Assembly (NCBI GenBank): GCA_964016885.1
Contig: OZ024742.1
Coordinates: forward strand, 194,928,001 to 194,992,000
DNA: 64,000 bases
Reading direction: 5' to 3'
Source: Eledone cirrhosa
Lineage: Eukaryota
Below, piece by piece: positions 536-58,556 of this stretch. The stretch's first letter is position 1, and every line of letters begins with the position of its first letter. The notes below the pieces were generated by a model. The model worked only from the letters and a program-made list of their open reading frames with translations. It made no database searches and was not told the origin of the DNA. The translations under genes and the position numbers were made by a program.

Positions 536-617
536 ATATATATATATATATATATATATATATATATATATATATATATATTTGTATATATATATATTTA
601 TTAAAATAACAGAATAA

Positions 618-668
618 AGTTTAAGCAAAGAATCGCTGCTTTCACCCTTAATGGGATCTTCTGAAACT
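618..668 (-). ncRNA. Type I hammerhead-like motif, CAGAAGA core (family A)
   Basis: agttt-CAGAAGA-tccc(attaa)gggt-GAAAGCA(gcgattctt)TGCTT-aaact: stems I, II and III form; CUU triplet; U4A core change. Confidence 0.65.
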
Positions 669-1786
669 AACAAAGTCAATCTGTAAACGCAGAAGTGGAT
701 ATTTCAAAAAACGTTGCAACCGGAGGAAGACAGGAAGACGATACTTTGGTTCGTGGAAAAGTTCGCTGGCAAAGAACGGGGAAAAACGAATATAATACGT
801 CATTAATAGGAGCGGTGAAAAACAATTACGCGCAAAGGCAGAACCACGTTTATGGTATAAAAGAGGTCGTAGACTAATGTTCTCTTAGGTGGTTCATAGA
901 GACGTTCTCTGGCAATGAACGAAAAAAACGAAGATAGTACGTCATATGTGGAGCGTGGAGAACAATTGCACGCAAAGACAAAACCATGTAAATGGTATAG
1001 CAGAAGTCGTAGACTAAAATTCTAACTAGGAGACCGAATGAATCTCGGCTTCAGAGTTAGGAACAAAGTAAATAAATACAATACAGAGGTAATAGAAATT
1101 AATAAATACATACACGCATATAAATACGTACATACACAAGCATACGCGAAAACACTTACCATAGGTATACAAAACCACGCACATATAAATATATGTGTGT
1201 GTGTGTATGCGTGTATACAAATAAATAAATAATTAAATAAACGTATATAAATAAATAAATACGTATATAACAAGCGCACACACATACCTACATGTAAATA
1301 CACAAATGTTCGGAGACGTAAGTCAACCAAAACATGAAGTACACATATACACACACCCTACATACGTACGAACCAGCATACTCACACAGACGCAAAACTC
1401 CCGTATACACATAACCAAACCATATGTACCAGAATATATAAAATTATACGCCATAACATATATCAATCAAATATACGTACGAGAAGGTATACGTACCTTC
1501 ACAAAACATACAGGTAATATATACTTACCTATGCAAATAAGTAATGGTATAAACAAAACATATACTTAGCTACCACATCAAGACGAAAAATATCCACGTA
1601 TAGATCGTACTATCCGTTAGGGTATAACGTGGGGCTGTAATACAGCAAAGTGTTGTGCAATTTATGTTTACAAGCCGAAATTGCCTCAGATGTGGTCTGT
1701 GGCGTAAATATTTCCAGGGCCTCACCGGCGCAGAGGTCACATGGTCTTTTATTTCCGTTTTACGATCTAGCCCTAGCTAGGATCTC

Positions 1787-2524
1787 TCAGTGTAACTTAT
1801 ATTGGGTGTGGTTGTCTTTTAGACTCCAGATATAAGCTGAAAGTGACGTCATATTCCTTCTTAGAGGGTAACGAAAAGAATGGGTATGCATGTAAAGACG
1901 CTGCTTGAATCTATTGGCGGTTAACCCTATGTAGGCCCTACGGGACGTGGGTGTTTCAACCTTACATTTGTAGACAATGTTACTAGAGAGGCATTTCCCG
2001 GATAGGGGGCAATCAACTCGATTCCTACAATTACAGTTAGTACTAACTACAGGGTTGCACGTGTTCCTACGGCTAGGTAGTTTAGCAAAATTTGAAGCCG
2101 TGATGTTATGTGCAAGATTAGGAGTCGTAGAGTAAGAAATTTTAATAGTATTTCTATTAAAAATGTTACTATATTTATGTGTAGGTGAAAAATGCTTCGT
2201 AATAAGGGAAAGAAAGATCTTAGCTAATGGTGTGGCCACCTCCATATTATATGGTGGGTTATACCAACAAATGCGACGGGATCTATTACTTGTAGGTCTA
2301 TTTTCGTACTCTGTATATGCTACCTTATCGACAAATCCACTCCGAACAAGAGCTTCATTGTAATAAGTGGAATGGTCGTTGAAAATATGCTCGTTAGTAG
2401 ATAGACGGGAAAGCCTCAACCGAACGTTTCTTACCAGGTTCTTGGTTATACTGGCAGGATGGTTGGAATGCTTACTTATGTAATTAAGCGTATCATTCGT
2501 CTTTCTATACGGGTAAGAGAACAT
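1787..2524 (-). pseudogene. PLE RT thumb + GIY-YIG endonuclease fragment
   Basis: 245 aa ORF with IVY..YIG..R...H GIY-YIG motif; premature stop relative to the copy at 21244-21522. Confidence 0.85.
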
Positions 2525-2874
2525 TAGTCTACGACCTCTGTTATACCATAAACGTGGTTCTGTCTTTGCGCGTAATTGTTTTTCACCGCTCCTATTAATG
2601 ACGTATTATATTCGTTTTTTCCCGTTCTTTGCCAGGGAACGTTTCCACGAACCAAAGTATGGTCTATAATTATTTGAATCTCTAACAGTTATGTAAATTG
2701 CTGTTATGTATTTTTAAGCTTTCTTACACGCACTCTCTGTATTATATGTATTATATGTAAGTTATTTCATGTCTCAATCTTAAGGTATATAAATATTGAC
2801 TTTTATAATATCCTACTCATTACCATGACTGGATCTTAACCATCTACTATGTCAGGGTATGTCATGCATCATCT

Positions 2875-2941
2875 TATTTTATCTGACGAGGACGTACTGT
2901 TGAAGTTAGCTTAGTACCTCTGAAATATGTATAATAAAATA
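2875..2941 (+). ncRNA. Minimal type I hammerhead ribozyme
   Basis: tattttat-CTGACGA-ggacgtact...agtacctct-GAAAT(atgt)ATA-ataaaata; 8-bp stem I. Confidence 0.75.
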
Positions 2942-3113
2942 TACTTGATCACAAGAAGTTCTATTTTTGTTAATATTTTAAATTAATATATATATATATA
3001 TATATATATATAACCGAGGTGTCCTACACGAGTGAAAGTATAAGGAAAATAGATGAAATCGGAAATGCAACTGTAGTCATTTTTTTTTAAAATATATATA
3101 TATTTATTTGGTT

Positions 3114-3144
3114 CCTTTACCGGTTTCGCCTGCTTTTCAAAAGT
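3114..3144 (-). ncRNA. Hammerhead motif, UUGAAAA core, stem II partly deleted
   Basis: ctt-TTGAAAA-gcaggc-GAAAC(cg)GTA-aag; inverted partner of 6111-6146. Confidence 0.5.
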
Positions 3145-55788: not shown

Positions 55789-55926
55789 AATAAATCTTAT
55801 TCGTAGCACCACTGATTCTCCGTTTCTTATGTGATATTATACTCTGCTCTGTAAGAGCATCGAGTGTTCAAAGAGCATCGAGTGTTAGGGACGCTTTAAG
55901 CATCCCACACCAATTATATATATATA

Positions 55927-56380
55927 TAGTGAAAGGGTGGAGAATAACATGGTCAACAGTACGAAAAGGGTTTTATTTACAGTATTAACAATTGTTTCAT
56001 TGATTAAGTTGTCTAAAAATTGGTAATCACTTGAAGTTGTGTCACTCAATTTTAAAGACAATGATTTGGTTAAGCATACATTGTATTAAAAATTGAGTGA
56101 CACAACTTCAAGTGATTAGCAATTTTTAGACAACTTAATCAATGAAACAATTGTTAATACTGTAAATAAAACCCTTTTTGTACTGTTGACCATGTCATTC
56201 TTCACTCTTTCACTATTATTACTCCAAGATTAACTTGCATAGGAATTCCCGAGAACTCACAAACTCGCTACCTAAGGAAACCTCTTGTTGAGTCAAACAA
56301 CGCCGTACGCTAAAACTATCCACAATGCGGAGTATTCATAATCTCTAACTGGATTGCCTATAACGATAATTTGTTATCCC
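55927..56380 (+). mobile_element. Fold-back PLE-type terminus with broken hammerhead
   Basis: 55927-56055 is inverted at ~56087-56216; GAAAC(aatt)GTT-aatac as in 48261-48361. Confidence 0.75.
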
Positions 56381-56454
56381 ATATATATATGATCTCCATA
56401 CAACACTTCAGTTTTTCAAACTGGTGCTTTCGCCTGGGGGAGACTAACGAGAGG

Positions 56455-56772
56455 ATCCGTAAGGATAAAGGCAAACTAGCCTCAGCGGGATTTGAACATA
56501 GAACGTAAAGGGACATAACGGCATGCAAAGCGTGTTGTCCGACACTCTACCGATAATAGTTTCTTATGTAGGCACAAGGCCAGCAATTTTGGGGGAGGGG
56601 AAAGTCGATTATATCGACCCCAGTGCGAGACTGGTACTTTATTTTATCGACCCATAAGGATCAAAGGCAAAGTTTACCTCAGCGGGATTTGAACTCAGAT
56701 CATAAAGGACCGTAACTCTATGCTACAAAGTATGGCGTCCGACACTCTACCGATAATGCCAATCCACTGCCC
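56455..56772 (-). mobile_element. Two adjacent SINE S2 copies
   Basis: Repeated aaggcaaa...gcgggatttgaac...gtccgacactctaccgata. Confidence 0.8.
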
Positions 56773-56865
56773 TTATCACTATAAATTGTAGTTCAGAAAA
56801 TCGGCAAAAATGCTCAATTTTCTCAACGATTATGGTTATTTGCGATGAGCCACACGCATTTAATA

Positions 56866-57695
56866 TCTATATATCTAAAACAAAGAATGTCTGCCTGTCT
56901 GTCTGTCTCCATAAAACTCGAAAACCACCCAATACATGTAATACTTATGGTCGTGTGAGTGTTTTGGGCAAAACATATTTCAAATTTTCAATGCCCTAGG
57001 GACCGCATTAGGCGAAAAACCGCATATTTTAGGGTTTAAAGGCCTTTTTTAGGCATAACAGAACAATAATCCAGGCGATTTCTTCAAAATTTGCATTACT
57101 TATGCCGTTTAAAGTGTTTTGAGCAAAAAGGATTTTCTCATTTTCTTGCCCCAGGGACCGCATTAGGCGAAAAACCGATTTTGTTATGCATTTTGGATAT
57201 TTAAGGGCCTGTAACTCGAGAAGTACCAACCGATTTTTTTTTTAACTTTGCATATGCATTACTTATGTTTCACAAATTTTCTTGGCTGAAAAAGATTTCA
57301 AATTTTTGCCCGGAGACCGCATTGTTTAGCATTTTGGTTGCGTTAGGGACTGTAACCGTAAAAGTATCCAACTAAATTCCTTAATGCTCTCCACCACTGC
57401 AGTCCCACATGCTTACTGCTCTGTAACTATTGCTTTCATTGTACCATAGAACAACAAGTACATGTTTGGTTTGTCAAATGCCTTTTTACTTAACCCTATC
57501 GTCTTGGCTTTCGTGGGTTGAACATTTTATTCTGAGGCACCAATCGTCTACGACGATTTTTTTTATTAGCACAAAATGTGTAGACACCATCCCCAGGCCG
57601 AGGTATTCCGTACTTCTCTGTACTGTTTCAGAAAGGGGGGATAAACATACCAATCTATGTTTAGAATCCCGAGCAGCGCCGGGCCATTCTGTTAG
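56866..57695 (+). mobile_element. Non-autonomous Helitron
   Basis: A|TC start, (CTGT)n near the 5' end, 3' hairpin cccg(agcagcgc)cggg, then TTAG|T. Confidence 0.75.
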
Positions 57696-57701
57696 TAATT
57701 A

Positions 57702-58556
57702 TCTATATATCTAAAACAGAGAATGTCTGTCTGTCTGTCTGTCTGTCTGACTCCTTAAAACTCGAGAACCACCTAACCGATTTTTTCCAAACTTTACACA
57801 TTTAATACTTATGGTCATGTGAGTGTTTTGAGCAAAAGATGTTTCAAATTTCCAATGCCCTAGAGACCGCATTAGGTCCCGGTTAGCGATCCCTCTATCT
57901 TTCTTATTCTGTCTTTTTAGATAGATACATAGCTATAACATCGCGCTCTTATAATATATGTCTGTATGTATGGCTGTCTGCATACGACATTATGACAAAT
58001 ATTGTTCTCATTACTGACGTATTATCTTCGCTATTTTCCGTTCATTGCCAGGGAACGTCTTCACGAACCAAAGTATCGTCTTTCTGTTTATGTTCGGTTG
58101 CAACGTTTTTCGAAATATTTACTTCTGCGTTCACAGATTGATTTTTTTAGTTTCAGAAGATCCCTTTATGGGTGAAAGCAGCGATTCTTTGCTTAAACTT
58201 TAATCTGTTATTTTAATATACATATAATTATATGTTCATGTACAGATATTTTTGCATACACAAAAACAAAATATAAACAAACGTATTTATTTCACGAAAG
58301 CATAGACAGCTTCTCGTCATTGTTACTGCCGATATGCCACCCAAAAAGTCCCACTATTTTTGGCACAAGGCCAGCAATTACATAGTCAATGGTTTGGAAA
58401 TGACATGCTTCACTGACGAGTATACTCCTTACTCCGCCAGTTAATTTTAGTGTACTTCGTCCTGCTTATAGGTCATGCCTGTACTGTTTCAGAAAGGAGA
58501 GATGAACATGCCAATCTATGTTTAGAATCCCGAGCAACGTCGGGCCATTCCGCTAG
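57702..58556 (+). mobile_element. Non-autonomous Helitron containing a PLE family A terminus with HHR-like motif (58149-58199)
   Basis: Same 5' end as 56866; 3' cccga(gcaacg)tcggg...CTAG|T; 58015-58218 matches the family A 3' end. Confidence 0.8.

Follow-up and report, generated by a model that had tools for sequence, protein, structure and literature searches.

Family-level core variants in hammerhead motifs of Penelope-like elements of Eledone cirrhosa

The 64,000-nucleotide (nt) stretch of the 3.0 Gb Eledone cirrhosa genome analysed here (assembly GCA_964016885.1, contig OZ024742.1, positions 194,928,001 to 194,992,000; referred to as the window, with positions counted from its first letter) is crowded with retroelement ends that lie in (TA)n sequence, many of them as inverted pairs, and also contains remnants of reverse transcriptases (RTs) and GIY-YIG endonucleases of the Penelope-like element (PLE) type. 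We found 29 type I hammerhead loci in it, under 16 family labels. By their sequence and setting these are hammerhead motifs near the 3′ ends of PLEs of the Hydra clade and of the Neptune/Nematis type. Families A, F, G, H, I, J, K, O and c22 have cores other than CUGANGA, so strict searches miss them, as a preliminary description of the window had anticipated. The explanation we prefer, with a probability of roughly 0.6, sorts the variants into two groups. One would consist of alleles that are compensated or tolerated and still cut weakly, the other of uncompensated changes of master copies that would cut poorly or not at all and were amplified anyway.

Hammerhead loci in the window

The preliminary description had reported about 20 type I folds from about 10 families at the ends of TA-inserted elements. 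All 12 cores it named lie where it placed them, those at 40799, 48356, 7680 and 42024 on the minus strand, and at each of them stem I, core, stem II, GAA, stem III and cleavage site can be drawn. The fold type stands; the numbers were an undercount, the families at 232/31304, 45056, 39122 and 23759 having been missed. The position shortly before the 3′ ends holds as well: the commonest alignment ends lie about 20–200 nt past the cleavage site, and a (TA)n run begins at most 320 nt after C3 in 26 of the 28 loci checked.

The relaxed-core search suggested at that time was carried out on the window and on 119 further 10-kb stretches, taken at round coordinates (115 across 21 contigs, four flanking the window). 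With position 4 and the 10.1:11.1 pair left free, the first scan gave 132 matches at a score of at least 20 in 1.25 Mb, compared with two in reversed sequence, and 15 compared with none inside the window at any score. The descriptor was built after the window had been inspected, and the outside stretches alone are the independent test. Because the scan far exceeds its reversed-sequence control, the loci are not explained by chance folding. Its matches were grouped into 37 clusters. A second scan, allowing any single core change, gave 190 matches and 15 in the control, none of the latter clustered; it misses families with a bulged stem II, such as K. Cluster 3 (the one-locus satellite L084, whose period of about 280 nt gives false hammerhead parses), five other single-stretch clusters and 24 singletons were excluded from family counts. 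Also dropped were a window match at 35007 and an alternative, low-scoring parse of family A (TTGAAAT, 44 nt upstream). Among the 150 of 302 Rfam matches listed, Hammerhead_1 appears only at 31445–31489 and 33725–33769 (31.7 bits; gathering threshold 34), and the other matches in the window are mostly low-complexity ones to miRNA models.

The type I core (C3 U4 G5 A6 N7 G8 A9, G12 A13 A14, A15.1-U16.1, H17) is present in families B, C/D, E, M, N and c10. Family B has a canonical CUGAUGA copy with G10.1-C11.1 at 33723–33768 (plus strand) and an inverted copy at 31446–31491 (minus). Family C lies at 17290–17348 (plus; CUGAUGA, palindromic stem III) and 40746–40807 (minus; CUGAUGA), and family C/D at 2875–2939 (plus; CUGACGA). 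The two family E copies, CUGAAGA with an extra G9a, stand at 16986–17034 (plus) and, inverted, at 12722–12770 (minus). Family N occurs at 196–240 (minus; CUGACGA, U10.1.U11.1, palindromic stem III; one of the missed loci) and, as a damaged copy, at 31268–31312 (minus). The c10 locus at 23682–23767 (minus) is a decayed copy of a CUGAUGA family, and family M is found at 55692–55786 (plus).

In F, H, I, O and most of K the core is completed by a swap of the 3:8 pair to U3:A8. The loci are 6106–6149 (F, plus; UUGAAAA, stem III ACCGGU), 3112–3148 (F, minus; UUGAAAA, the copy lacking part of stem II), 7637–7688 (I, minus; UUGAUAA, with a copy-specific extra A before GAA), 45048–45140 (O, plus; UUGAUAA, U.U closure, long hairpin stem III) and 48260–48364 (H, minus; UUGAAAA, U.U closure, 72-nt stem II domain).

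The core is departed from in A (U4A), J and c22 (U4C), G (A13C) and a K subfamily (C3.A8). Family A has seven loci: 617–671 (minus; CAGAAGA, U.U closure, hairpin stem III), 20292–20346 (minus, inverted copy), 22408–22462 (plus, followed by a tail extension), 24555–24609 (plus, the copy starting about 9 nt before C3), 47881–47935 (plus), 55084–55138 (minus, 5′-truncated at the core) and 58146–58200 (plus). Family J, with CCGAAGA, lies at 41674–41787 (plus; U.U closure, 81-nt stem II domain) and in an inverted copy at 41167–41280 (minus); c22, also CCGAAGA, has an internal deletion at 39094–39130 (minus). Subfamily G, UUGAAAA with A13C, stands at 9493–9537 (minus) and 12265–12309 (plus; A15.1 altered in this copy). 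The K locus at 41933–42032 (minus) reads CUGAGAA and has a stable hairpin stem III. Individual damage is seen at 3140 (the stem II deletion), 7680 (the extra A), 12273 (A15.1), 23759, 31304, 39122 and 55130. Further K ends at 7941–8093, 19830–20029 and 45438–45614 stop within stem II and form fold-backs, and an inverted pair at 55915–56376, of a J-related family (c26/c44 type), ends inside stem II and has no core.

Core variants as family traits

Genome-wide pattern counts are exact-match lower bounds in which inverted pairs count twice, and the matches listed are the first by position. Families F (6114) and I (7680) have U3:A8 as the family state, and in H (48356) UUGAAAA occurs in 24 of 26 on-target matches. 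Family O (45056; 1,133 matches) has U3:A8 in 100 of the 100 listed, with position 7 free and C4 in three. The wider family K (1,498 matches) shows, in the first 100 listed, U3:A8 in 70, C3.A8 in 27, U3.G8 in two and C3:G8 in one. All four bases occur at position 7 beside the U3:A8 pair in K and O; because this position varies while the 3:8 pair stays fixed, we infer selection on U3:A8.

U4C is likewise a family state. CCGAAGA is present in 41 of 41 copies of family J (41682) and in 100 of 100 among the matches listed (790 in total), and U4C in 99 of the 100 listed for c22 (39122; 4,944 in total). It is common to J and c26, two families with different stems and with RT stretches of just 63% identity, and recurs in c27 and in minor copies of O and M. 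At 10.1:11.1, G10.1-C11.1 is found in 9 of 26 family representatives, and U.U is the most frequent state (41 of the 126 first-scan matches scoring at least 22). Otherwise intact folds have family-level A.G, A.A or C.A mismatches there in c7, c21, c22, c23, c16 and c10. A whole-word literature search for a G10.1/C11.1 mismatch, in which figures and subscription journals are missed, gave none.

U3:A8, U4C and U10.1.U11.1 are already in print. PLE hammerheads with the U3:A8 covariant and low dimer activity were described by Cervera and De la Pena (2014; PMC4209133), and their supplement contains the exact cores UUGAUAA and UUGAAAA. Perreault et al. (2011; PMC3088659) describe U3:A8, U10.1-U11.1 and the viroid U4C as naturally occurring states that are compatible with ribozyme function. 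Many Hydra motifs tabulated by Craig et al. (2021; PMC8557442) have the form ctgangat...tgaa, that is, U10.1.U11.1. Most of the families found here would escape a strict search for CUGANGA/GAAA that requires 10.1:11.1 to be paired.

The second set of changes behaves differently in its distribution, each change marking one expansion. In family A, 15 of 18 unselected copies have CAGAAGA and none has U4. Genome-wide, leaving position 4 open gives 24,354 matches; A4 stands in 100 of the 100 listed, and U4 occurs in 114. The existence of a U4 sister family within A was considered and rejected, because 20 of these 114 matches, when fetched, proved to be single copies scattered about, many of them where elements are truncated or fold back. 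Subfamily G (9529, 12273) combines U3:A8 with C13. None of the 37 matches found via the upstream flank has A13; of 11,261 genome-wide matches with any base at 13, C13 occurs in 97 of the 100 listed and A13 in 42 overall. Among the nearest relatives of the K locus at 42024, 27 of 38 matches read CUGAGAA. In family c44, outside the window (L110:4316, minus strand), U9 occurs in 80 and A9 in 17 of the 100 listed (122 in total). The c44 core with U9, fixed in a subfamily, is CUGAUGU with an 81-nt stem II domain; the same core occurs in an unrelated single match at L117:6570.

Relatives without the change exist for all four. The relative of A (L356, G000:C4:373581401-373582100) has canonical CUGAUGA with the same stems I and III, G has family F, the K subfamily has the U3:A8 majority of K, and c44 has its A9 copies. 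Because of these relatives, the changes are, judged by sequence, derived, each within a single expansion. The preliminary description had taken variants shared across copies or families to be probable lineage-specific alleles and not random decay. Most are indeed family traits (A, F, G, H, I, J, K, O and c22), with 55700 as the counter-example: CUGAGGA is commonest in family M (14 of 32 on-target matches), A8 occurs in three, the window copy included, and CUGAGAA at 55700 is copy decay. For the same word at 42024 the interpretation was incomplete: it is the trait of a subfamily derived from a U3:A8 family by loss of the 3:8 pairing. Also overlooked were the A13C of the subfamily at 9529 and 12273 and the common mismatch at 10.1:11.1. 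Sharing by itself cannot tell a working allele from a single lesion in a master copy, and each of U4A, A13C, C3.A8 and A9U resembles such a lesion.

Stem covariation, proposed earlier as a check, is clear in the canonical C/D family, with 43 double-sided cells in eight pairs against 14.6 in shuffled alignments (0 of 500 shuffles reached this; the sequences are related and the figure is not a probability). It is weak in F/G (two pairs, four cells). Both double-sided pair changes in that alignment (A3) separate F from G, and the G-type stem II also occurs with A13, so no stem covariation could be placed after A13C in it. For U4A, A13C, C3.A8 and A9U we found no sign of selection of the kind seen for U3:A8 and U4C. 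They were not found in print either, in whole-word literature searches for U4A and A13C that miss figures and subscription journals; figures and one supplement file outside the search may still contain them. Most of the odd cores are family traits already published.

Parent elements and copy ends

The preliminary description had assigned the motifs to PLE pseudo-long terminal repeats (pseudo-LTRs), and open reading frames (ORFs) for RT-GIY-YIG proteins could be linked to eight families. The clearest case is J, a 3.5 kb unit in which an 808-residue ORF stands between two U4C hammerheads in five of five tandem loci (L240-L244; picked because two matches stood 3.5 kb apart). The units are 98.6–99.6% identical, and J is by its sequence a young, ORF-intact family carrying U4C. 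Its layout is that of PLE pseudo-LTRs, with the motif at both ends of the RT-GIY-YIG ORF in a partial tandem; inverted pairs of element ends occur in the window.

The J protein carries the marks of the Hydra clade, with RWK, DKT, a CxC linker and no CCHH, and by eye resembles the Hydra alignment of Craig et al. (PMC8557442). RWR and DKT are found in A, and DKT in H. The CxCX5C linker is complete in A, H and C; its third Cys is replaced in J and K. No CxxC stands between the VY/IY and YIG words in these Hydra-type endonucleases. They are followed by the family motif in 29 of 33 matches for A, 32 of 33 for J, 16 of 16 for H, two of five for K (the other three ending at the locus edge) and several for C. 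Family A frames of at least 700 residues exist, one of which (L355) is 732 residues long and 43% identical to J. E, F and G have a CX2-5CxxC linker before a C-terminal GIY-YIG domain, the Neptune/Nematis type, two clades that are not told apart here. In an endonuclease tree holding only sequences of this genome, J and c26, which both have U4C, form a group with one unlabelled row (99/99) that is adjacent to H, and A groups with K at 94/89.

In the window itself, Hydra-type endonuclease remnants lie at 1631–2044 (minus; family A copy, found by tblastn) and 48745–49104 (minus; family H), and a 5′-truncated family A copy retains an RT end and endonuclease at 20530–21387 (plus). Of the Neptune/Nematis type are the F GIY-YIG ORF at 4191–4799 (minus; CX4CxxC linker) and the G GIY-YIG region at 10799–11290 (plus; tblastn, 91% to the L257 ORF). 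Family E has an RT ORF at 14618–16081 (plus), then a broken GIY-YIG frame to about 16790. Assignment by the nearest upstream ORF is confounded by nested insertions, and only repeated links were retained; for B, I, M, N, O and c22 such links gave no parent ORF. Pfam gave no match in the J protein, and a PDB sequence search with A1 gave one at chance level. The folds, their positions, their family-level fixation and the parent elements of A, H, J, K, C, E, F and G are established.

The dispersed or inverted element ends of the window and the links to PLE ORFs do not match non-LTR retrozymes, which are short tandem non-coding units each with a hammerhead. Several same-family hammerheads close together on L064:283-1242 and L148:8450-8482 are possibly retrozyme-like repeats.

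In no family do 5′ ends pile up at the cleavage site (several piles there are reference edges), which is in keeping with uncut templates. Each family has two 3′ end points, an end and a tail, for example 29 and 119 nt past the cut in A. The J pseudo-LTRs extend 530–1,550 nt upstream of the motif, a reach consistent with uncut templates and equally with circular ones. In family A, 10 of 31 unselected copies are 5′-truncated within −5 to +4 of C3 (24555 and 55130 are among A loci so cut or inverted); such ends could reflect the start of an RNA or a site prone to fold-back. The starts of M copies lie about 28 nt before C3, and those of some H copies about 16 nt before it.

Upstream of the C/D hammerheads, subfamilies at 17255–17297 and 2850–2882 keep a donor-like GGTATGTCA, and most C copies have TATAAA about 20–25 nt before C3; these words may point to an intron or promoter. 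Other repeats in the window are broken elements of the long interspersed (LINE) type with APE endonuclease and/or RT domains, at 34815–37483 and 49725–50719 (minus), and at least two abundant short repeat families resembling short interspersed elements, at 23056–23268, 30153–30366, 43524–43831, 50843–51428, 56454–56773 and 59239–59447.

A proposed division of the variants into two groups, and known systems

In the two-group explanation, the first group comprises U3:A8 in F, H, I, O and most of K, U4C in J, c26 and c22, and U10.1.U11.1. These are likely compensated or tolerated alleles that probably still cut weakly and would be kept by selection. For cutting, two pseudo-LTRs would form a dimer by way of their palindromic stem III, perhaps with help from the element's protein. 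Many PLE-linked motifs with a reduced stem III reportedly cut as dimers. The second group (U4A in A, A13C in G, C3.A8 in the K subfamily, A9U in c44) likely represents crippled master copies that amplified anyway: each change would have arisen once, and reverse transcription would start internally, downstream of the hammerhead, on uncut RNA. Since families of more than 24,000 and more than 11,000 matches have spread with core changes that are likely crippling, the cut may not be needed for the element to jump. Published cases point the same way. In a type III hammerhead, mutations of the CUGA turn gave low activity (Roberts et al.; PMC9901934). Naiads without canonical hammerheads still amplify (PMC8557442), and for the Poseidon element PAc of Anolis, hammerhead mutants had no effect on insertion in vitro, uncut RNA being the main substrate (Frangione et al., 2024; PMC11167929).

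Several points weigh against this explanation. Among 21 second-scan clusters on at least two stretches, the majority core is CUGANGA in 16, U3:A8 in three (one containing the A13C subfamily), U4C in one and U4A in one, and in none is G5, A6, A9, G12 or A14 changed in the majority. The hammerheads here are thus mostly conserved; cleavage therefore cannot be freely dispensable, and the second group may be tolerated and not dead. Very short products from the cleavage site (20–30 nt in A and K) are invisible to 5′-end analysis. The 732-residue family A frame has no hammerhead of its own in the fetched stretch and ends before the end of the J protein, and no fully intact family A copy with U4A was found among the loci fetched. 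Impaired cutting by U4A, A13C and A9U is likely by analogy, being carried over from other hammerheads; for A13C and A9U the expectation comes from the core consensus. Protein help could also rescue weak cores, as for PAc, whose hammerhead needed protein to cut (PMC11167929).

A bolder idea deserves some weight, if only tentatively: U4A, with more than 24,000 copies, and A13C, with more than 11,000, would not be passengers. They would be active only in the element's ribonucleoprotein, widening the catalytic core, or be deliberately detuned switches protecting the priming site from a monomer-competent ribozyme. The general form of the first alternative, that all family-fixed variants work, U4A and A13C included, because dimers or the element protein offset the core change, appears unlikely. 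The fixed changes of the larger families do avoid G5, A6, G12 and A14, A and G are among the most abundant families, one PLE hammerhead is protein-assisted, and U4C, despite reduced activity in vitro, still sustains the infectivity of viroids (PMC3088659). However, each change of the second group is limited to one expansion, with no second independent family, stem covariation following it cannot be placed, and A9U is also fixed in a subfamily.

Selection of weak cores as a brake, a stable stem III hairpin otherwise allowing monomer cutting that removes the element's own priming site, we consider improbable. A hairpin of −2 kcal/mol or below is predicted in A, K and O, three of three non-CUGANGA, compared with 6 of 23 others (Fisher p 0.03), but this test is post hoc with one representative per family, A and K cluster in the endonuclease tree, leaving about two independent cases, and A13C and A9U occur with minimal palindromic stems. 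A variant linking the lesions alone to a monomer-stable stem III did not hold (two of four).

Still harder to sustain is that the second-group fold is kept as a non-catalytic cis-element, serving as a protein binding site or overlapping a transcription start or a splice acceptor. The family A ends around C3, and those of M and H before it, would fit, as does the Drosophila Penelope intron, which ends at helix I; U4A also creates TTTCAG, an acceptor-like word, and TCAGA, an initiator-like one. Yet the word TTCAGAA comes close to a palindrome, and fold-back inversions make up many of the junctions; the end cluster may need no other explanation, and no spliced copies were seen. Post-insertion decay of single copies holds for 55700 and for the damage at 3140, 7680, 12273, 23759, 31304 and 39122, but as a general account it is scarcely credible, being refuted by genome-wide fixation in A, G, J, c22 and O and by 24 of 26 matches in H.

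At stake is the role of the hammerhead in PLEs: cleavage proved dispensable in one in vitro study, yet conservation of the motif is widespread. Natural pairs of families or subfamilies that differ at one core base are present in this genome (F and G, the K majority and its subfamily, A9 and U9 in c44, A and L356), and together with the young, ORF-intact U4C family they make the importance of cleavage to PLEs testable.

Among the known systems, PAc belongs to another clade, has a canonical core and was tested in vitro, whereas the families here are known from sequence alone; common to both are two 3′ end points and the lack of ends at the cleavage site (PMC11167929). Perreault et al. set core mutants in repeats aside as cryptic mutants, and the text examined does not name U4A, A13C, A9U or C3.A8 (PMC3088659). 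The motifs share with the PLE pseudo-LTR hammerheads of PMC4209133 the type I fold near the 3′ end, the palindromic stem III, U3:A8 and, in family E, the 9a residue. That paper stresses a conserved G10.1-C11.1, in contrast to the minority of family representatives here, and the searched text of its supplement, one file lying outside the search, contains neither CAGAAGA nor CCGAAGA. Shared with the Hydra-clade PLEs of PMC8557442 are RWK/RWR, DKT, a CxC linker, no CCHH, (TA)n targets and U.U motifs. All cores tabulated there are CUGANGA with a short stem II, whereas the Hydra families of Eledone cirrhosa have U4A, U4C, U3:A8 or C3.A8 and stem II domains of 56–81 nt, with J reaching 3.5 kb.

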